DNA of 64,000 nucleotides from Candidatus Poribacteria bacterium (GCA_002709695.1 PAQF01000078.1:116980-180979); one strand, 5' to 3'. Shown: positions 727 to 28,155, counted from the first letter of the stretch. Numbers and translations: made by a program. Notes: a model not told the origin generated them from the sequence alone.

Positions 727-1188
727 CTAGCAGCATAAAACCACAAAGGTCTCATGTTTAGTTGAGATTTTAAAATCAGAACGTAATTCTAGATTAATTG
801 TTTGGAGTTCATAGAAAAGCTCTGCGATAAATTCCATCTTGCGCCCCTCTGTGAATGCCATGACTGCGTATATAATACCTCGGTAGTGCCAATCTTCATT
901 TCCTGCTAGCACCAAACTTTTATCAACATTTTGAATAGTAAACCCTTCTTCATTTATCTGAGGAGTGATTCCCTATGGTATCTCAAATCCAAAGGATTCG
1001 ATATTATTGCTTTGACCAACATAAATATGTGTATCGGATATTCTTTGGTTGTCTGTTGTGATCGGGAGTTCCGTACCAGATATACTTTTAATTGTTTTTT
1101 TGAAGTATTTTTGAAGTTTCAATTGCTTGGTCCAAATCCTCCACACCACAATTTTTGCTTTAGAGTGTCCCGACTCTACGATTATCAT
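727..1188 (-). pseudogene. Hypothetical ~154-codon reading frame interrupted by a single in-frame TAG (at 973-975); unknown family
   Basis: Track ORFs 973..1188(-) and 727..915(-) are in the same frame (both low coordinates are 1 mod 3, and the 57 nt between them equal 19 sense codons). Translation across: ...NIESFGFEIP*GITPQINEEGFTIQNVDKSLVLAGNEDWHY... I recognise no family. Confidence 0.3.
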
Positions 1189-1459
1189 CGTTTTGATCGC
1201 TTAACTTAGTTTTCTTTGTCTTGCCTTTTAAGAATGTTGGATATGATTCCATACTATAGTAGTCTAAGATCTTCTGTCAAGTGGTCTGGGTTGAAAATAC
1301 AAAGTAAGTGAGGGGTGGTATACCTTTTTGGGTTTGGCTTGACAAACTAAAGTTTGGTGCTATAACATATCGGTTCACAAACAAATTCGATTGATTTACA
1401 GCCTTTACTGATAATTCAATACTTTTTAAGTTTATCTATGAATAATTAAAGTAAGGAAA

Positions 1460-1945
1460 ATGGAGCCGAAAGATATTTTTGCTGAACGTATAAGTGTAGA
1501 AGAAGTGGAAGAGGGAGACCAACTTGCGCCCAAATTCGACTCGGAAGGTTTGATTCCAGTTGTAACAACTGATTATAAAACTGGCGAGTTGCTGATGCAT
1601 GCTTACATGAATCAAGACGCGCTAGCCAAAACAATTGAAATTGGTGAAGCAGTTTACTGGAGCCGGAGCCGTCAATGCTTATGGCATAAAGGTGCTACAA
1701 GCGGATTGGTTCAGAAAATCCACGAGATTCGAGTTGATGATGATCAAGACTGCATCTGGTTGCGGGTGGATGTTATGGGAGGTGCAAGTTGCCATGTTGG
1801 CTATCGATCCTGCTTCTACCGAAGCATTCCCTTCAGTGAAGAAGCGGAAGGGAAATCGCCAATCACGTTAAACTTTGAGGATATGGAAAAAGTTTTTGAC
1901 CCCAAGAAAGTTTACGGTGATGCCCCGAATCCAACCAGATTATAA
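1460..1945 (+). CDS. hisI: Phosphoribosyl-AMP cyclohydrolase (HisI), monofunctional
   Basis: 161 aa. [53 protein letters not shown] matches the PRA-CH core. C-terminal Cys pair ([13 protein letters not shown]) is consistent with the Zn-binding type. AGGAAAATGG RBS context. Confidence 0.9.
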
Positions 1946-1968
1946 CAACAACATGCAAGGGGGAGCTA

Positions 1969-2196
1969 ATGCCCAGATATGATTTTGAGTGTTCTGATTG
2001 TGATGTTGTATTCGAAGAGAAAGTTTCGTTGGCAGACTTAGAAAAAGCTGTTGAGTGTCCACTATGTGAAAGTCTAAACACCAAAAGAACTATTGGGATG
2101 CCAATGATCTTTAAAAAACAAAATAGTCAATCAAGCAACGTAGCCAGCCAAAACACAACTCGTGGGCGTCACCGCTCTAGCTGTCCTTGTTGTTAA
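1969..2196 (+). CDS. FmdB-family zinc-ribbon putative regulatory protein
   Basis: 75 aa. N-terminal MPRYDFECSDCDVVFEE...CPLCES (CxxC ... CxxC) is the FmdB/zinc-ribbon signature. C-terminal CPCC. Confidence 0.6.
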   Translation: MPRYDFECSDCDVVFEEKVSLADLEKAVECPLCESLNTKRTIGMPMIFKKQNSQSSNVASQNTTRGRHRSSCPCC

Positions 2197-2228
2197 TACT
2201 TAATTTTTAAGTTAGGATAAAATAGAAG

Positions 2229-3263
2229 ATGTTTGAAGTCTCAGACCCAAATTCCCCTATACCGATTACTATTCTAAGTGGATTTCTCGGTGCAGGAAAA
2301 ACTTCACTGCTCAACCATATATTACACGGAGATCATGGCCTCCGTGTTGGAGTCTTAGTTAATGATTTTGGTGAAATTAATATTGATGCGGAATTAGTTG
2401 CTGGTGTTTCTGGGGACTCAGTTAGTCTTTCAAACGGCTGTGTTTGCTGTTCGATTCGGGACGATCTAGTTGAATCAACTTTACAACTAGTCCAAGGGCC
2501 TAATAGACCTGAATATCTTATACTTGAAACAAGTGGGGTGGCAGATCCGGTCTCTGTTTCACTTACTTTTGTTGAAAGCGAATTGAAATCGCTAGTTGAA
2601 GTAGATAGTATATTAACTGTTGTGGATGCCGAGAATATACGAAGTTTGGATGGTGATTATGAGGAACTTGCTGAGGATCAAATTAGCTTGGCAGATATCG
2701 TAATTCTCAACAAAGTTGATCTCGCAAATCAACTTACTCTAAGTGAATTAAAATCATGGATTCATGGAATGGTTCCGAATGCTCGGATTATGGAAACAAC
2801 TCATGGGAAAGTTCCGCTTGAATTGATATTGGGTATAGGTCAATTTGAACCTGAGCGTGTTCTTGGGAAAACGCGCTCCGACATACACGTACATGCCGAA
2901 TCTGGTCATGATCATCACCAACATGACCACGAAGATAATGGCCATGATCATGATCATGATCATACATTGGTTTTTAGCACATGGAGTTATAGTTCTAGTG
3001 AACCGCATTCTTATAAGGCACTGCGTCAGGCTGTTGAGTCCTTACCTTCTACTATTTACCGAGTAAAGGGGATTGTATTTCTCAATGAATCTCCAGATCG
3101 GTGTGGTGTTATTCAGCTGGTAGGTAAGCGAACCCGTGTATCTGTTACCCAATCATGGGGTGACAAAACACCTTACACCCGAATTGTAGTGATCGGCACT
3201 CATGGGGGGGTCGATGCCAGCGAGCTCTCAGAACGTTTTGAATCTTGTCAAGTTAACGACTGA
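2229..3263 (+). CDS. COG0523 / CobW-family G3E GTPase (putative metal chaperone), His-rich linker
   Basis: Walker [19 protein letters not shown], CxCC motif (GCVCCS), His-rich [24 protein letters not shown], and CobW C-terminal domain ([10 protein letters not shown]...RIVVIGT). Confidence 0.85.
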
Positions 3264-3265
3264 AT

Positions 3266-4645
3266 TTGAAGCACAAAGCACAAATGGATATTGAGATGAA
3301 AAATCGAGTTCCAGTTACAGTGTTAACCGGTTTTTTGGGGGCTGGGAAGACGACCCTACTTAACCGTATTCTCAGTGAACATCATGGTAAACGTATTGCA
3401 GTTATCGAGAATGAATTTGGTGAAATAGGGGTTGATCACGAACTTGTGATTGGTACAGACGAAGAGATCTTCGAAATGAACAATGGTTGTATCTGTTGTA
3501 CTGTTCGTGGCGACCTAATCCGAATCCTAGGGAACCTAATGAAACGCCGGGATAAATTTGATTACATCTTGGTTGAAACAACAGGTTTAGCTGATCCTGG
3601 ACCAGTAGCACAAACTTTCTTTATGGATGCTGAGATGCAAAGCCAACTTGAATTAGATGGCATTGTTACTGTTGTTGATGCTAAACATATATGGCAACAT
3701 ATTGACGAAAGCAATGAGGCTAAGGAACAAATTGCCTTTGGTGACGTGATTTTGCTGAATAAAACAGATCTCGTAAGTCCAGAAGAACTCGGCAAACTCG
3801 AAAAACGCGTTCGTTCAATTAATGCTATGGCAAAGATTTACCAAACACAAAGCACATCTATTGAGATTAACAGGATTCTGAACATTGGAGGTTTCGATCT
3901 TGAACATGCTTTAGACATTGACCCTCACTTTTTAGAACCTGAGTACCCATTTAAATGGGTTGGGGTGTATCAACTTGAACCCGGAATGTATGAATTAACT
4001 AACCGTGAGAATCAGCAAATAATAACAAATGTTTGTATTCTAGATGCTACTGCTAAGTTTGATAAAAAAGAAATAGCGAACGAAACACTAGAAGAAGCTG
4101 TATTAGTATTTTCAGATGAAGAAAAAACAATTGATGGCCAATCAACTGTAACAATAGGGAAGGTCTTGAATCAATTGTCGTTTTCTGACGATATTACGTC
4201 CCAATGTTACTACGTGGAGATAAAAGAGACAGGATGTTACATGCTTTTTACTGAGCATCATCCACATGATTTTGACTTGGGATTGTATGATGGTAAGGGG
4301 AAAATCGATCCTGTTTATGATTATGAATATGGACACCACCATGAACATGATGATGATGTTACATCTGTTGGTGTAAGAATCGAAGGCGACCTAGATCCAA
4401 ATCGATTCAATGAATGGATTGGACATCTCCTTCAAACAAGAGGTCCCGATATCTTCCGTATGAAAGGAATTCTTAGTTTCATTGGCGTTCCAAACCGACA
4501 CGTTTTTCAAGGTATTCATATGCTCTTTGATAGCGAACCGGATAAGCTTTGGGAAGGCGAGATACGCCAAAATGAAATGATTTTTATTGGGCGCCATTTG
4601 GATCAAAAAGAGTTAGTTGAAGGGTTCAAATCGTGCCTCGTGTAA
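3266..4645 (+). CDS. COG0523 / CobW-family G3E GTPase paralog with ~150-aa insertion and His/Asp-rich segment
   Basis: [25 protein letters not shown], insertion between GTPase and CobW_C domains, [13 protein letters not shown]-terminal FRMKGILSF...MIFIGRHLD. Starts 3 nt after the previous paralog. Confidence 0.85.
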
Positions 4646-5685
4646 GTAGAAAAAAAAGGACTATAAGTCTGTGCGAGAACTGGCGAAGTATGATTAGTGA
4701 CCATGTAATTGATCTCTGTTGGTCTCCTCGAAAGGAGAAAATTGCAGCGGCCGCAGTCAGTGGACCTATTACTATTTTTAACGCTGAAACTGGTGATGTT
4801 GATCACGCGTTGGAAGGACATGGTTTTGGAACTATGTCTATAGCATGGCATCCGGAGGAGGACATGCTCGCAACTGCAGGCCAAGATGGGAAAGCGAAGT
4901 TGTGGTCTACAGAATCAGGAAATTTGCTCATGGAACTAGAATGTGGTGCGTCTTGGGTTGAGCATGTTTCTTGGAGCACTGATTCTACAAAAGACCGGAT
5001 TCTGGCGACTAGCGCCGGGAAAAAAATAAAATTCTGGTCTGCAAACGGTAACCTAATAGGGGAGGCCTCGGATCAGCAAAACACAATTTCTGATATCCAA
5101 TGGAATCCGGAAGAAAACATACTCGCCTCAATTTCCTATGGTGGGATAAAGCTATGGTCTCCTGATATTTCAAACGAACTCCGCATTTTTGATTGGCAAG
5201 GATCCGCATTGAAGATTCACTGGAGCCCTGATACCCGTTTCATAGCTACTGGAGACCAAGACTCAACGGTACATTTCTGGTTTGTGGAAACTGGACAGGA
5301 TCTCCAAATGTCTGGTTATCCAACTAAGATTCGTGAACTCTCTTGGGATAAGAGTAGCCGATATTTGGCTACGGGGGGTGGTTCACAAATAGTCATTTGG
5401 GATTGTTCCGGAAAAGGGCCGGAAGGGCGGAGACCAATTATGTTGGATGAGCATAAGGATTTTCTCGTAGATATAGCTTTTCAGCATCACGGAGATCTTT
5501 TAGCTTCAGCAGGTCTTGATGGCTTACTGGTAATTTGGGAACCCTTCACCGGCCGCAAACGGAAGCAACCGAAAGCTAGGATTGGTTTTGATCAAAGTCT
5601 TACAAAAGTAGCATGGTCCCTTGATGATACCAAGGTTTTAGTCGGTGATGATTCGGGGATTATCGCAGTTTTTACGCTTGGCTGA
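4633..5685 (+). CDS. WD40-repeat (beta-propeller) protein
   Basis: Repeated ...GH...V..WS...LA(T/S)...DG...W modules ([39 protein letters not shown]). The annotated start overlaps the COG0523 stop by 13 nt. An alternative Met at ~4690 is possible. Confidence 0.7.
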
Positions 5686-5807: not shown

Positions 5808-6695
5808 TTAATCTACTGGTCGAAGCTCGGATGATAATTTCTGAAAACTGTTGATTAGGTCAGTAAGTTTACGTTGTTGGGCATTCACTTTTTGCTGGAT
5901 ACTTTTAACAAGATTGGCGATTGGGTCACTGTCTTTACTGCCTTTCTCTCGGGCCTTATGAATTTCTTGTTTAAGTTTGTAGATTTCACCTGATTTGATA
6001 CGATTGATTTCCACGTGCAAGTCTGAAAATGAGCCCTTTGCGCATTCAAGTTGTTGTGCTAGGTGCTTTTTCTTCTCCGCGAAAGTTTGGTCATGCAACT
6101 CGATTTCGTCGGCTGTTTCCACACTTATACGTTTAAGTGTATCGATATCTTGATCTTCATAGGCTCGGTTGATGACTACCATCATCTGTTTTTGCCGTTC
6201 ATAGCCCTCTTTACCTTCAGCTGATTTATCTGGATGATAAGCTTTAGCAAGTTCGAGATATAGTTTTCGTACGTGCTTCGTTTGCGAGGTTGAAAGTTTA
6301 TTTTTGTTGTTATTCTCTTCGATTTCTTTTTCCTGCTTTGTTGCGTCTTTTTCGTGATTTTCTAAGCGTTGCCGTTGCGACTTAAAACAGGATGCAACAC
6401 GTTCCTCGATTTTTGCTTGGGATACACCTTCTCGAACCAACAGTAGACGTAGCTTATACTCTCTCATTGATAAATTTACCTTATCAAGCTCGATATATGT
6501 CCCTGCCACGCGGAGATCATATGCTTTTTGGAAGTGGCGAACTTCAAGTTTTAAATCTTCAAGATCAAGCGTCATTTCTGCAACTTGGTGACGTGTCAAT
6601 TGAAGCTCAAGTTGTAGCTCTTCAATTTCAATCTGGTCGCGGTTTTTGGTGGGAACGATAGCAGCGCTAGGCATTTCCGATCCTGAACCAGTCAC
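5808..6695 (-). CDS. J-domain (DnaJ-like) protein with flanking coiled coils
   Basis: Central J-domain KLYLELAKAYHPDKSAEGKEGYERQKQMMVVINRAYE with the HPD motif; heptad-rich flanks. The GTG at 6695 overlaps the infA stop (TAGTG). An alternative ATG at 6674 has an AGGA RBS. Confidence 0.6.
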   Translation of the reverse strand: MTGSGSEMPSAAIVPTKNRDQIEIEELQLELQLTRHQVAEMTLDLEDLKLEVRHFQKAYDLRVAGTYIELDKVNLSMREYKLRLLLVREGVSQAKIEERVASCFKSQRQRLENHEKDATKQEKEIEENNNKNKLSTSQTKHVRKLYLELAKAYHPDKSAEGKEGYERQKQMMVVINRAYEDQDIDTLKRISVETADEIELHDQTFAEKKKHLAQQLECAKGSFSDLHVEINRIKSGEIYKLKQEIHKAREKGSKDSDPIANLVKSIQQKVNAQQRKLTDLINSFQKLSSELRPVD

Positions 6696-7063
6696 TATTT
6701 TCTTCGATAAATAATGCGTCCACGAGTCAAATCGTAAGGTGATAGTTCAACTGTAACGCTATCACCCGGTAAAATGCGGATAAAATGCTTACGCATGCGG
6801 CCACAGATATGTGCTAATACTTCATGCTTGTTCTCAAGTTCGACCCGAAAAGTAGCATTCGGTAAGGGTTCTGTAACTGTTCCCTCTACCTCTATTTTAT
6901 TCTGTTTTGATTTTTGGCTTTGTTCGTTTTCACTTGTGACCTGCTCCGGTGTATTGGTTGCAGCTACTGTAGTTTTGGGCTTTTTCTTTTTTCTTCTGCG
7001 GTTGTTATTATGTGGTTGAAAACCACCTGTTTTCTTTTTGAATGGTCTTTTTTTCCTGCTCAA
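6695..7063 (-). CDS. infA: Translation initiation factor IF-1 with ~55-aa Lys/Arg-rich N-terminal extension
   Basis: C-terminal 70 aa [66 protein letters not shown] is canonical IF-1. The only in-frame start upstream of the core is TTG at 7063 (AAGGAG RBS 7 nt upstream). There is no ATG, GTG or TTG between it and the core. Confidence 0.85.
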
Positions 7064-25175: not shown

Positions 25176-26261
25176 TTATTGATTTTCTAACTCCATATTT
25201 TTGATTTCATCTTCGAGGGTTTTAATTTCTGCTAATATTCCCACGTCGGATTCTAGTTCATAAGCCTTCTGATAAGCCGCTAGAGCAGCTTCAGGATCAT
25301 CTAAGAACGATCTCTGGATTTGACCAATCCACTGCCAAGCATCGACTTCGCTAGGATCCAATTCTACAATCTTCTGGTAGATATTAAGTGCTTGGTCATA
25401 GGATCGGGTGCCTCTCGCTCGTCCCGCAATTGAGGCTTGTCGATATAATAGCCCTATCAGTTCTTGACGTGCTTCTACAAAGTGTTCGTTAATATGGACA
25501 GCATCTTCGAGGATCGCAATGGCTTGTTTTTCCATTTTTTCTATCTCAGTTGCGTCAGGTATGTTTTCCTGACCTAAATTTTGATAACCTTGAAGTATTT
25601 GTCGATAAGTCCGCGATAATTGCATCCTTGCGAGTTGTCCTACTGCTGCTAGCTCAAACGGTTGGTGGATCATTTGTAGGTCGTACTGAATTGCTTGCTG
25701 ATAGTGATCAATTGCTTGTTCGAATTGGCGAGCTCCTTGGTATAAAACTCCAAGTAGATAATGAGCCTCAAAATTTTTAGGGTCCTTTTTAATTACTGCT
25801 AAGAATTCCTGTGTTGCTAAGGCCCTTTGCCCATTATCCTTATATAGTTCACCTTGAAGCAATCGTAGTTCTGTATTGTTTCGGTCTATTTCTGCTGCGC
25901 GAGCCAAATGGTCTAGCGCATCCTTGTTCCAATTGCTTCTAAAGTAAATTTCAGAGATACGTAATCTTGCATGAAGTAATTTTTGGGGTTCTTTTTGACT
26001 TTCCATGTGGGTAATGGTTTCCCAATACTTTACTAGTGCTCTAGGCAAGTCCTGTGTCTTGTATAATTGATCTGCTTTCTCTATTAGTTGATCTAAGTCT
26101 GGATTTTCTCCATAGTTTTGATTTGTGTAGGAATTCGTTATATTAACAAAAATGATTACAAAGAAAATGAACACAGCGAATATCTCGAAATAAATGAGCC
26201 ATTTTCTCGTGTTTGTCATTTCGTCAATCATCCTAGTTTCTGAATCAATTTTTCCAAACAA
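25176..26261 (-). CDS. TPR-repeat protein with N-terminal membrane anchor
   Basis: Hydrophobic segment LIYFEIFAVFIFFVIIFV followed by multiple 34-residue TPR-like repeats (AxxxYxxAI motifs). Confidence 0.7.
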   Translation of the reverse strand: MFGKIDSETRMIDEMTNTRKWLIYFEIFAVFIFFVIIFVNITNSYTNQNYGENPDLDQLIEKADQLYKTQDLPRALVKYWETITHMESQKEPQKLLHARLRISEIYFRSNWNKDALDHLARAAEIDRNNTELRLLQGELYKDNGQRALATQEFLAVIKKDPKNFEAHYLLGVLYQGARQFEQAIDHYQQAIQYDLQMIHQPFELAAVGQLARMQLSRTYRQILQGYQNLGQENIPDATEIEKMEKQAIAILEDAVHINEHFVEARQELIGLLYRQASIAGRARGTRSYDQALNIYQKIVELDPSEVDAWQWIGQIQRSFLDDPEAALAAYQKAYELESDVGILAEIKTLEDEIKNMELENQ

Positions 26262-28155
26262 GTCCTTGGTCTAAAAATTCGATGAATCGTTTTTTATTAC
26301 GTGTTAAGCCTGGGAACCTGGTAATCTCACGATCTTCGGGAGATAGCACAACGTAAAATGGCAAAGCTGTTGTTCCAAATCGATCTATTTCCATCTGTTG
26401 ATTTTTATCTTTGTCTGCTCCGCCATCTGTAAACAACTCTATAAGTACAAACTGTTTTAAACGAGATGAAATTTTGGGATCCTTAAACATGTTAGATTCC
26501 ATCCAGCGACAGTTAGTACATGTATAACCAGTAAAATTCACAAACATTGGTTTGCCCGTTTTTTTCGATTGCTTGAGACCTTCCTCGAATTTCATAACCC
26601 AATCCAAACTATTATCTGATGTCTCAGTATTAGGTTTATGAGAGCGGCTTTGTAAATCTAGTGGCAGATAAGCATCAATAAGGCTATGTAGAGGATGTCC
26701 TGTTAAGCCTTTTGACATATAGATGGCAAATGTAAACAGGACTATGCTGAGGATCAAACGAGGCGCACTAATAGTTTCTAGTTCCGAATCATGTGGTAAA
26801 CGAAGTTTGCCAATCAAATATAGACCGGTTAGGAACGCGATCACTATCCATATAGAAAGTACGCTAGATCGAGTGAAAATTCCCCAATTCCATACTAAAT
26901 CTACATTGCTAAGAAATTTGCATGATGCGGCAAGTTCAAGGAATCCCATTACTACTTTTATTGAGTTGAGCCAGCCTCCACTCTTAGGCATTTTTGCCAA
27001 ATATTGAGGGAAGAGTGCCAGCAAGAAAAACGGAACAGCAAATGCTGTTGAAAAAAACAACATTCCAATCAGTGGCCACAGCCAATTTCCTTGAACTGCT
27101 GCAACTAAGAGTAAACCGACAAATTGTACAGTACAAGTGAAAGAGGTCAAGGTAAAAGTCAGCGCCATAAAGAGAGTGCCTACATATCCACCTCTTCCTT
27201 CTTGTGTGGATGAAAATTGCCTAAGAGCTGTGGGGAGTTGGATTTCATACATACCGAAAAGCGAAAATGCAAAGTATACAAAGAGAAAGCCGATAAAAAG
27301 ATTGACCCAAGGACTGGCAGCTAGCTGATTAGCCCCTGAAGCTCCCAGTGTTATGGCTAATATCAATCCTAATATAGTATAAGTAATAATAATACCTGCA
27401 GAATAAATGAAAGCTTGAGCGAGTGTTTTCCCTTCTTCATGTTCACCTCGTTTAATAAAATAGGATACAGTAATAGGAACCATAGGAAACACACACGGAG
27501 TTAGTAATGAGAGAAAACCCATGGATAGGGAAAGAAGAATAAAAGATTTTATTCCCTTGGCTATGATATTATCCAGGTCAATTTTATCGTCGCCAACAGT
27601 AACATCTGTTTCCATCAACTTGTTCTTCTCATTTCTGGGGTTGCCTTCTTCCACTAACAAAGCAACAATCATTTTTGTGGTCTTTGGAGGGTAACAGATG
27701 TGTGGGTCACAAGCTTGATATAAAAGTTCTACGATAAGCGAATATTTACCGGGATTTAAGGTGGGAATAAGCTTAATAGGTGTTTCGAATACAACAGTTC
27801 CTTCATGAAAATAAACATCAATTTGAAACCCTTCATCATATTTGGTTGCAGGTATCGGTTCTAAAGTTTTGCCAAGAGAACTGACTAAGTTCTCGGGCTT
27901 AATAGTCACCTTTGAGGCGACAGGTCCTACACTTTGTTTATTAGCGGCATAAATGTAGAATCCTGATTTAATTAGAGCCTTAGTTTTTACTGTAACTATC
28001 TCTCCTGCTCGAGCAACAGATGGGTTGATTTCTGCCTCAGCAGTTACAACGGAGTCGACTGTGGTAAAGGGGGTAAATTGCCCAATAGCCAATGGTGCTG
28101 TGGTCACCAAAATCAATAATGCTAGTTGAGGGTACTTTTTTTTATGGATATTCAA
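26245..28155 (-). CDS. dsbD: Thiol:disulfide interchange protein DsbD (protein-disulfide reductase)
   Basis: Signal peptide, periplasmic N-terminal domain, multi-helix core with conserved Cys (LLTPCVFPMVPI), and C-terminal thioredoxin fold with CTNCRWME (CxxC). Confidence 0.85.
   Translation of the reverse strand: MNIHKKKYPQLALLILVTTAPLAIGQFTPFTTVDSVVTAEAEINPSVARAGEIVTVKTKALIKSGFYIYAANKQSVGPVASKVTIKPENLVSSLGKTLEPIPATKYDEGFQIDVYFHEGTVVFETPIKLIPTLNPGKYSLIVELLYQACDPHICYPPKTTKMIVALLVEEGNPRNEKNKLMETDVTVGDDKIDLDNIIAKGIKSFILLSLSMGFLSLLTPCVFPMVPITVSYFIKRGEHEEGKTLAQAFIYSAGIIITYTILGLILAITLGASGANQLAASPWVNLFIGFLFVYFAFSLFGMYEIQLPTALRQFSSTQEGRGGYVGTLFMALTFTLTSFTCTVQFVGLLLVAAVQGNWLWPLIGMLFFSTAFAVPFFLLALFPQYLAKMPKSGGWLNSIKVVMGFLELAASCKFLSNVDLVWNWGIFTRSSVLSIWIVIAFLTGLYLIGKLRLPHDSELETISAPRLILSIVLFTFAIYMSKGLTGHPLHSLIDAYLPLDLQSRSHKPNTETSDNSLDWVMKFEEGLKQSKKTGKPMFVNFTGYTCTNCRWMESNMFKDPKISSRLKQFVLIELFTDGGADKDKNQQMEIDRFGTTALPFYVVLSPEDREITRFPGLTRNKKRFIEFLDQGLVWKN

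Follow-up and report, generated by a model that had tools for sequence, protein, structure and literature searches.

COG0523, WD40 and hisI genes in described zinc regulons

The COG0523 proteins characterized as zinc metallochaperones are ZigA and MigC of Acinetobacter, ZagA of Bacillus (whose client is FolE), YeiR and YjiA of E. coli, and the eukaryotic ZNG1 (whose client is METAP1). The leading candidates for zinc chaperones inside the cell belong to this family, and few of their clients are known. Here we analyze a cluster of five genes located at positions 1460-5685 of a 64,000-nucleotide stretch of DNA from a Candidatus Poribacteria bacterium (this whole stretch is called the window in what follows). 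The cluster contains a monofunctional hisI, an FmdB-family zinc ribbon gene, two consecutive COG0523 genes, named COG0523-A and COG0523-B, and a gene encoding a WD40 protein. An original prediction, made from the sequence alone, had proposed it as a zinc-limitation module able to metallate HisI. We found that the five genes form a real, conserved operon, far from a chance arrangement. We consider it probable that they are expressed together from a single repressor-controlled promoter in front of hisI, and that the operon sustains zinc-dependent enzymes during zinc shortage.

Both gene pairings observed in the cluster, hisI with COG0523 and COG0523 with WD40, were already described in 2009. In that study prokaryotic COG0523 genes of subfamily 5 were found to cluster with WD40-repeat genes (Haas et al. 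2009, BMC Genomics 10:470), and the WD40 partner, which the original prediction had taken for an undescribed arrangement, has therefore a clear precedent; the same subfamily takes in eukaryotic ZNG1/CBWD. In Bradyrhizobium japonicum (bll7771-7768), Nitrobacter and Rhodopseudomonas palustris the pair belongs to Zur-box-preceded znuCBA-COG0523-5-WD40(-sapB) clusters (Haas et al. 2009). The statement of the original prediction that HisI paralogs cluster with COG0523 genes agrees with the same work, where Zur-regulated hisI2-yciC is reported in Klebsiella pneumoniae pLVPK and zur2-hisI2-pyrC2-folE2-dksA2 in Hahella chejuensis; Pseudomonas fluorescens is also among the carriers of such clusters, and the zinc ligands are conserved in these hisI2-type paralogs. 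A full-text literature search for COG0523 together with WD40 returned no study of the WD40 partner later than 2009. Another beta-propeller involved in zinc handling is AztD of Paracoccus denitrificans, a periplasmic zinc chaperone that passes zinc to the solute-binding protein AztC (PMC6689063).

The window locus shares with the znuCBA-COG0523-5-WD40 operons a COG0523 gene immediately followed by a WD40 gene in a zinc-homeostasis context. However, its pair is detached from znuABC and zur, has no proteobacterial-type Zur box, and is preceded by hisI, the FmdB ribbon and a second COG0523 gene. As in the hisI2-yciC clusters, a stand-alone hisI directly precedes COG0523 in one unit tied to zinc limitation, but hisI2 is a second copy there, while in the window HisI the first ligand Cys is replaced by Asp. 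Like ZigA, ZagA, YjiA and ZNG1, the two window GTPases have the G3E P-loop GTPase domain, the CxCC motif and the RxKG arginine finger, with a His-rich linker in COG0523-A. Both nevertheless score under the NCBIfam equivalog cut-offs for ZigA, CobW and YjiA, and COG0523-B, unlike the characterized COG0523 proteins, has a folded 149-amino-acid (aa) domain instead of a flexible linker and a dedicated WD40 partner. AztD is comparable in being a beta-propeller whose gene lies in zinc-uptake loci, in many cases close to genes of the CobW family; it is, however, periplasmic and not of the WD40 type, whereas the window protein is translationally coupled to a cytoplasmic GTPase. The locus is of an expected type, a COG0523 cluster resembling a Zur regulon; peculiar to this Poribacteria clade is the union of both pairings and the FmdB ribbon in one unit detached from zur and znuABC.

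A conserved five-gene operon in Poribacteria

Profile searches with Pfam and NCBIfam agree with the five open reading frames (ORFs) and domains of the original prediction, all on the plus strand. The first gene, hisI (1460-1945), encodes a monofunctional phosphoribosyl-AMP cyclohydrolase (PRA-CH; PF01502, 105.7 bits; NF000768, 155.1 bits against a cut-off of 126). It is followed at 1969-2196 by the gene for the 75-aa FmdB-family protein (PF09723, 42.6 bits, cut-off 34.4; TIGR02605, 48.8 bits, cut-off 31.3), in which the cysteine pairs C8/C11 and C30/C33 form a CxxC...CxxC ribbon and the C-terminus ends in a CPCC tail. COG0523-A (2229-3263) encodes a G3E GTPase with 344 aa and a linker rich in His, and COG0523-B (3284-4645; the maximal ORF begins at TTG 3266) encodes a G3E GTPase of the long type linked to WD40 proteins. 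The last gene, at 4633-5685, encodes an eight-bladed WD40 beta-propeller (PF00400, 109.2 bits).

The five genes are co-directional, separated by 23, 32 and 20 nucleotides (nt) and then overlapping by 13 nt. A gap of only 3 nt between the two COG0523 genes, as given in the original prediction, is obtained if TTG 3266 is used, but the start conserved in the relatives is ATG 3284 (MDIE...), which sits 20 nt past the TGA of COG0523-A. The overlap at the other end of COG0523-B is confirmed: the WD40 gene starts at GTG 4633 and shares 13 nt with it, and through this overlap it is predicted to be translationally coupled to COG0523-B. The exact ATG-N10-stop overlap between the two genes is kept in 9/9 lineages examined.

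The same order, with hisI, the zinc ribbon, a COG0523 of ~342-346 aa, a COG0523 of ~448-453 aa and a WD40 protein of 350 aa, is present in relatives from hydrothermal-vent and marine contigs with 83-90% protein identity, and the FmdB gene occupies the same position there with 76-80% identity. The co-localization of homologs in related genomes, on which the original prediction depended, is thus observed. Five-gene order is kept in loci L003-L006, L010/L011, L018, L020 and L021, with two sets of flanking genes: L010 has the downstream flank of the window (IF-1, MoCF, DUF1015), while L003-L006, L020 and L021 have PhyH and DUF4838 genes upstream and BNR proteins downstream. At least three related lineages of Poribacteria, with unlike flanks, keep the cluster together and, since the gene order persists while the flanks differ, the module travels as one unit.

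A scan of 49 window ORFs turned up no his, zur or znu gene, and neither did tblastn, which also revealed no second hisI in the window. The separation of hisI from a his operon, claimed by the original prediction, holds for the genes scanned in the window, although just 1.4 kb of the window lies upstream of hisI. Genes for cobalamin, hydrogenase, urease or nitrile hydratase were likewise absent from the window ORFs scanned.

The two COG0523 GTPases and the WD40 propeller

Both COG0523 proteins contain the two domains of the family well above the Pfam cut-offs of 20.7 bits for cobW (PF02492) and 22 bits for CobW_C (PF07683), with 174.2 and 60.4 bits in COG0523-A and 210.3 and 79.1 bits in COG0523-B. 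The P-loop GxxxxGK[ST], CxCC, ET[ST]G (Walker B/switch II) and NKxD are present in both, and in COG0523-A the motifs after the P-loop read GCVCC, ETSG, NKVD and RVKG. A 2026 preprint identifies RxKG as the sole invariant motif of COG0523 C-terminal domains (CTDs) and as an arginine finger (PMC13001444). Here it is found as RVKG at residue 278 of COG0523-A and as RMKG at residue 392 of COG0523-B. The linker of COG0523-A carries 11 His within 35 residues, and COG0523-B has a smaller His/Asp patch. Concerning closer classification, the architecture of COG0523-A is the short one of YciC and ZigA, and neither protein reached an equivalog: for ZigA (NF038288) A and B scored 172.8 and 197.1 bits against a curated cut-off of 600, for CobW (TIGR02475) 192.8 and 196.9 bits against 332.1, with no cob genes in the window, and for the YjiA type (NF008578) B scored 243.3 and A 135.4 bits against 361.

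COG0523-B is ~60% identical to homologs of 446-456 aa in Chloroflexota, Acidobacteriota, Planctomycetaceae and Poribacteria. In all the WD40-linked GTPases the G-domain and the CTD are separated by a conserved insert of ~130-150 residues, which the proteins of the COG0523-A type do not possess. In COG0523-B it takes 149 aa (residues 217-365, positions 3914-4360) and has the signature EPEYPF.W.G ... LFTEHHP.EF ... HEHDD. In the AlphaFold2 (AF2) model the insert is compact, beta-rich and confidently predicted (blocks with predicted local distance difference test, pLDDT, of 65-93, mostly 80-93), while the remainder of the model is poor. The insert has no Pfam match, and Foldseek against the PDB gave no significant fold match for it. 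The same search with COG0523-B returned YjiA as the only relative, through the G-domain and the CTD.

The WD40 protein is modeled by AF2 with a pLDDT of 91.7 and 32 strands, corresponding to eight blades. Its fold matches are only generic eight-bladed WD40 proteins (TM-score of 0.85 to Rsa4 and ODA16), which give no information on its function. Orthologs form a tight family of 340-360 aa in which the most conserved surface is on blades 5-6, including DLQM.GYPTKVRELSW. An exact-protein look-up gave no record for the window protein, and reading by eye, with no predictor used, showed no obvious N-terminal signal sequence.

Zinc genes around the COG0523-B/WD40 pair in other lineages

Nine lineages, belonging to at least five phyla, were found to have the COG0523-B/WD40 pair, always with the WD40 gene after a COG0523 gene of ~450 aa. 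Genes of the Fur family and/or ZnuA/ZnuABC adjoin the pair in 7/9 lineages, and in an eighth ZnuA is ~6 kb away; ZnuABC is the commonest neighbor. In Spirochaetaceae (L002) the order is znuA-znuC-znuB-COG0523-WD40. In Chloroflexota (L008) it is fur ... znuA-ABC-permease-102 aa-COG0523-WD40, followed by two CDF genes and an ArsR-family gene. A planctomycete-like lineage has znuA ... COG0523-WD40-fur ... hisI; the cultured acidobacterium Acidicapsa ligni (L097) has 102 aa-COG0523-WD40-fur, and in a Planctomycetaceae metagenome-assembled genome (MAG; L098) the pair is divergent from znuA-C-B. L034/L038 are among the loci with the pair beside znuABC, Fur or NicO, and one further genome has COG0523-WD40 with ZnuA nearby.

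The most direct link with the window comes from another Poribacteria locus, L012, where fur is divergent from a znuA-COG0523(A-like)-three small ORFs-COG0523-B-WD40 cluster. The fur-znuA intergenic region of this locus carries ATGTTATAATATAACAT, which Haas et al. 2009 list as the Zur consensus, and the gene directly after znuA, behind this Zur box, is the ortholog of the window COG0523-A. Orthologs of COG0523-A, COG0523-B and the WD40 gene are found in loci of this kind, so all three belong to zinc-homeostasis loci elsewhere. The neighborhood of subfamily 5 of Haas et al. 2009 (WD40, znuABC, HoxN/NicO-type transporters) is that of the COG0523-B orthologs, and COG0523-B is assigned to this subfamily by synteny and not by a tree.

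Some further elements were noticed in these loci. Directly upstream of the 102 aa-COG0523-B-WD40-fur genes of Acidicapsa ligni, at L097 6676-6712, there is a 26-nt imperfect palindrome, AACGAcAATGA-TAAC-TCATTaTCGTT, which we propose as a candidate autoregulated Fur-family operator. An ORF of 86-102 aa with the motif C-x-EEGCPP and no Pfam family lies directly before COG0523-B in four lineages (L007 6381-6641, L012 6381-6641, L008 6306-6614 and L097 6712-7020). The window operon lacks this ORF, and COG0523-A takes its place. A protein of 137-163 aa with CKGCCCG ... EGCLGPC and no Pfam match is encoded within Zur/ZnuA/COG0523 clusters of L012 (5315-5806) and L007 (5222-5635). The possibility that the small ORFs before COG0523-B (86-102, 137-163 and 78 aa) are relatives of FmdB or HisI was rejected, as they are unrelated and belong to no Pfam family.

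The promoter and a putative operator upstream of hisI

Alignments of 4-5 Poribacteria loci define a conserved promoter/operator block at 1328-1412 on the plus strand. It consists of a -35 hexamer TTGACA (1339-1344), a 16-nt spacer, an extended -10 element TGcTATAAC (1358-1366) and a conserved start of the leader; a promoter-like site was also predicted at 1339. Within the spacer lies a perfect palindrome, CAAAC-TAAA-GTTTG (1343-1356). The 71-nt core (~1332-1402) shows 3-4 differences among Poribacteria relatives (~95% identity), against 72-74% at the third codon positions of hisI, and the conserved block reaches ~50 nt into the leader. Neither a conserved block resembling a promoter nor a terminator separates hisI from the GTPase genes.

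As to the metal-responsive operator that the original prediction expected upstream, no Zur box of the ATGTTATAATATAACAT type was found near the operon within 3 mismatches (this consensus is of the proteobacterial type and may not be that of the host), but another conserved palindrome, CAAAC-N4-GTTTG, is present. A partial resemblance to a Zur box upstream of hisI was rejected, as it concerns only the right half and coincides with the -10 hexamer. CAAAC-N4-GTTTG occurs twice in the 64 kb against 0.09 expected occurrences. When the palindrome was searched for at other genes, only the hisI promoters of Poribacteria relatives and chance matches were recovered, and no regulon was obtained. The second copy in the window (26541-26554) is inside a DsbD-like gene (26245-28155) and is probably a chance match.

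A riboswitch or structured leader before hisI was also considered and rejected: Rfam gave 0 matches, both at the gathering thresholds and at E<=1, and the predicted fold is no better than that of shuffled sequences (z = 0.65). Because the block is highly conserved, with neither an Rfam match nor a stable fold, it is best read as a promoter plus a predicted repressor operator.

HisI and its D-D-D subfamily

In plant HISN2 the catalytic zinc is held by three "universally conserved" cysteines, Cys126, Cys142 and Cys149 in MtHISN2, of which one, in the motif D-C-D-x-D, comes from the partner subunit and two are downstream, near the catalytic His (PMC8102479). Alignment of the window HisI with 1ZPS and 7BGM identifies D93/D95/D97 as the Mg site and H112 as the catalytic His. 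The original prediction stated that the zinc-binding Cys pair is kept, and C111 and C118 are indeed conserved; however, D93-D94-D95-Q96-D97 aligns to D-C-D-x-D, so that Asp94 replaces the first zinc-ligand Cys. The canonical Cys3 zinc site is therefore absent, and D-D-D is a trait of a subfamily, found in 118/118 motif-matched close homologs and in 84/84 motif matches in the fetched loci. Since position 98, a Cys here, varies, this residue is not a conserved substitute ligand. PRA-CH activity is still the likeliest function of the protein.

Among the closest representative clusters at 50% identity, the D-D-D type accounts for 46 and invariably comes with (A/S)SCHVGY, and the 53 D-C-D clusters have ACHTG. 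A D-D-D hisI is divergent from a COG0523 gene in a Rhodospirillaceae MAG, and it is near COG0523, ZnuA, Fur or WD40 in 9/75 other metagenomic loci, plus L015. The D-D-D HisI may represent an isozyme that needs little zinc or depends on a chaperone; alternatively, many phyla may simply have it as their ordinary HisI.

Some observations on the surroundings of D-D-D hisI genes can be added. Among loci L017-L096 the gene recurs in co-directional clusters of zinc enzymes, such as CysRS>ThrRS>HemB>HisI>RibA>cupin, HisI>QueD-like>HemB and HemB<..>HisI>YidD>CysRS (e.g. L031, L057, L073; L053, L078, L090; L027, L080, L088). The HemB of these clusters is of the Mg type (DVALDPY..GHDG) in 15/15 cases, and CysRS, ThrRS and RibA retain their zinc motifs. 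A gene for ribosomal protein L33 of the Cys-poor (C-minus) type follows D-D-D hisI in Hydrogenedentes (L013 6629-6802) and Omnitrophota (L016 6520-6669), and the hisI of L016 is also followed by a Trm112-like ribbon and an amidohydrolase. The C-minus L33 was not used as evidence, as it could be the sole L33 copy, and a 92-aa ORF beside hisI in L034 was dismissed as an ABC-ATPase fragment.

A model for the operon and its alternatives

The zinc-limitation reading is supported by the orthologs of COG0523-B and WD40 beside znuABC or Fur, and by the COG0523-A ortholog behind the Zur box of L012. This evidence is comparative, because the window itself has no zur, znuABC or recognizable Zur box. In such a model COG0523-A would act as an ordinary zinc metallochaperone rich in His, of the same kind as YciC, ZigA and ZagA, and the FmdB ribbon could be a small zinc-binding adaptor or regulator. 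COG0523-B and the WD40 protein would form a 1:1 complex, a proposal based on the conserved 13-nt coupling and on the insert, which replaces the gating linker of the ZigA type. In ZigA this linker gates zinc-stimulated GTP hydrolysis by the arginine finger of the CTD (PMC13001444), and for this reason the insert of COG0523-B is proposed to be a docking platform for the propeller, which in turn might recruit clients or control the open/closed cycle of the GTPase. HisI with its Cys2-Asp site would be a local client or a zinc-frugal isozyme co-expressed with the chaperones, and its metallation by the module, as in the original prediction, is plausible. The same prediction also saw in the WD40 protein a possible scaffold or client.

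A bolder version of this model is unlikely as a whole: COG0523-B and WD40 would be an obligate two-subunit metallochaperone, distributed over at least five phyla, and jointly the D-D-D HisI would be a zinc-frugal or alternative-metal isozyme. In this version the insert may dock the propeller, and the propeller may select clients or serve as an exchange or gating factor for the GTPase.

Several results weigh against a role in zinc limitation, and they lead to different explanations. The absence of Zur, ZnuABC and a recognizable Zur box from the window has been mentioned, and it should be noted that the Pfam families of ZnuA and Fur are not specific for zinc. About 66/75 D-D-D hisI loci outside Poribacteria have no COG0523, ZnuA or Fur within 6 kb, and hisI could simply be a housekeeping copy. 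It is doubtful, even so, that hisI and FmdB are ordinary housekeeping genes placed upstream of a COG0523/WD40 zinc cluster with no functional link to it. Such an explanation would account for locus L012, where both GTPases and WD40 are clustered and hisI is not in the cluster, and it fits the lack of a second hisI in the window and the share of D-D-D among the closest HisI representative clusters, about half, so that many phyla may use it as their regular enzyme. Yet the order hisI-FmdB-COG0523-A is kept with gaps of 23-32 nt behind a single conserved promoter and with nothing resembling a promoter or terminator in between, the unit containing hisI persists when the flanks differ, and independent adjacencies of hisI and COG0523 are known from Rhodospirillaceae, planctomycete-like loci and published Zur regulons.

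The metal handled by the module could be another one (cobalt, nickel or iron), as for CobW in B12 synthesis or Nha3 with nitrile hydratase. Acidicapsa and the Planctomycetaceae MAG do have NicO-family transporters on the flanks of the COG0523-B/WD40 pair, making nickel or cobalt possible, a HoxN-type transporter occurs in the subgroup-5 neighborhoods (Haas 2009), the best NCBIfam match of COG0523-A is CobW (192.8 bits), and the change from Cys to Asp in HisI could favor a harder metal. We regard this as quite improbable: the CobW score is well under the 332-bit cut-off and the ZigA score almost equals it, genes of cobalamin synthesis, hydrogenase, urease and nitrile hydratase were not found in the ORF scans of the window, the box of L012 is the Zur consensus of Haas, and ZnuABC is the neighbor most often met. 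As for the signal, the palindrome is not known to match any Zur consensus, and its regulator could therefore respond to a different signal, such as histidine. The upstream block would then be a leader, an attenuator or a regulator site responding to histidine or another amino acid, and the operon would follow the histidine supply; that hisI is the first gene, that the block extends ~50 nt into the leader and that no Zur box was found are all in favor of this idea. It is nonetheless very improbable, given that no Rfam family (T-box, His leader and all others) matches even at E<=1, that the leader folds no better than shuffled sequences, that a leader peptide rich in His codons was not noticed at 1370-1459 (in a reading by eye rather than a formal scan), and that four of the five genes are unrelated to histidine.

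Neighboring genes in the window

Other window genes encode a GH95 protein, a sulfatase and many PhyH and GFO/IDH/MocA proteins; this gene content and the closest homologs, at 85-99% identity, indicate Candidatus Poribacteria. Upstream of hisI, positions 797-1194 (minus strand) and 1251-1280 are the remnant of a DUF4838 gene, matching residues 3-117 and 729-753 of the 753-aa ortholog in L003. As these residues alone are recognizable, an internal deletion of ~610 aa can be deduced, and the conserved divergent promoter of the remnant (TTGACA-16-TATAGT, 11/12 matches) is still present. Downstream, at 5808-6695 (minus strand) and convergent with the WD40 gene, a 295-aa coiled-coil protein is encoded, with a DnaJ J-domain match below threshold (23.2 bits, cut-off 27.8). 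Its gene shares one base with the stop codon of the next one, at 6695-7063 (minus strand), which encodes an IF-1 with a very basic N-terminal extension of ~55 residues (RRRKKKKPK).

Implications

The locus places the gene of a zinc enzyme, hisI, a His-rich COG0523 and a COG0523-B/WD40 pair behind one promoter, and this shared promoter nominates HisI as a testable client. With both gene pairings already described, the residual interest lies in the insert of COG0523-B and its WD40 partner, in the non-canonical operator and in the D-D-D HisI subfamily. Acidicapsa ligni is cultured, and Bradyrhizobium and Rhodopseudomonas are genetically tractable, so experiments are feasible. The WD40-linked GTPases have a conserved folded insert where other members of the family have a regulatory linker; if the two-subunit chaperone were true, it would reveal how the subfamily to which eukaryotic ZNG1 belongs works in bacteria. 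The locus also points to a large HisI subfamily without one canonical zinc ligand, and a zinc-frugal D-D-D HisI, if confirmed, would explain its recurrence beside COG0523, Zur, ZnuA and other zinc enzymes.

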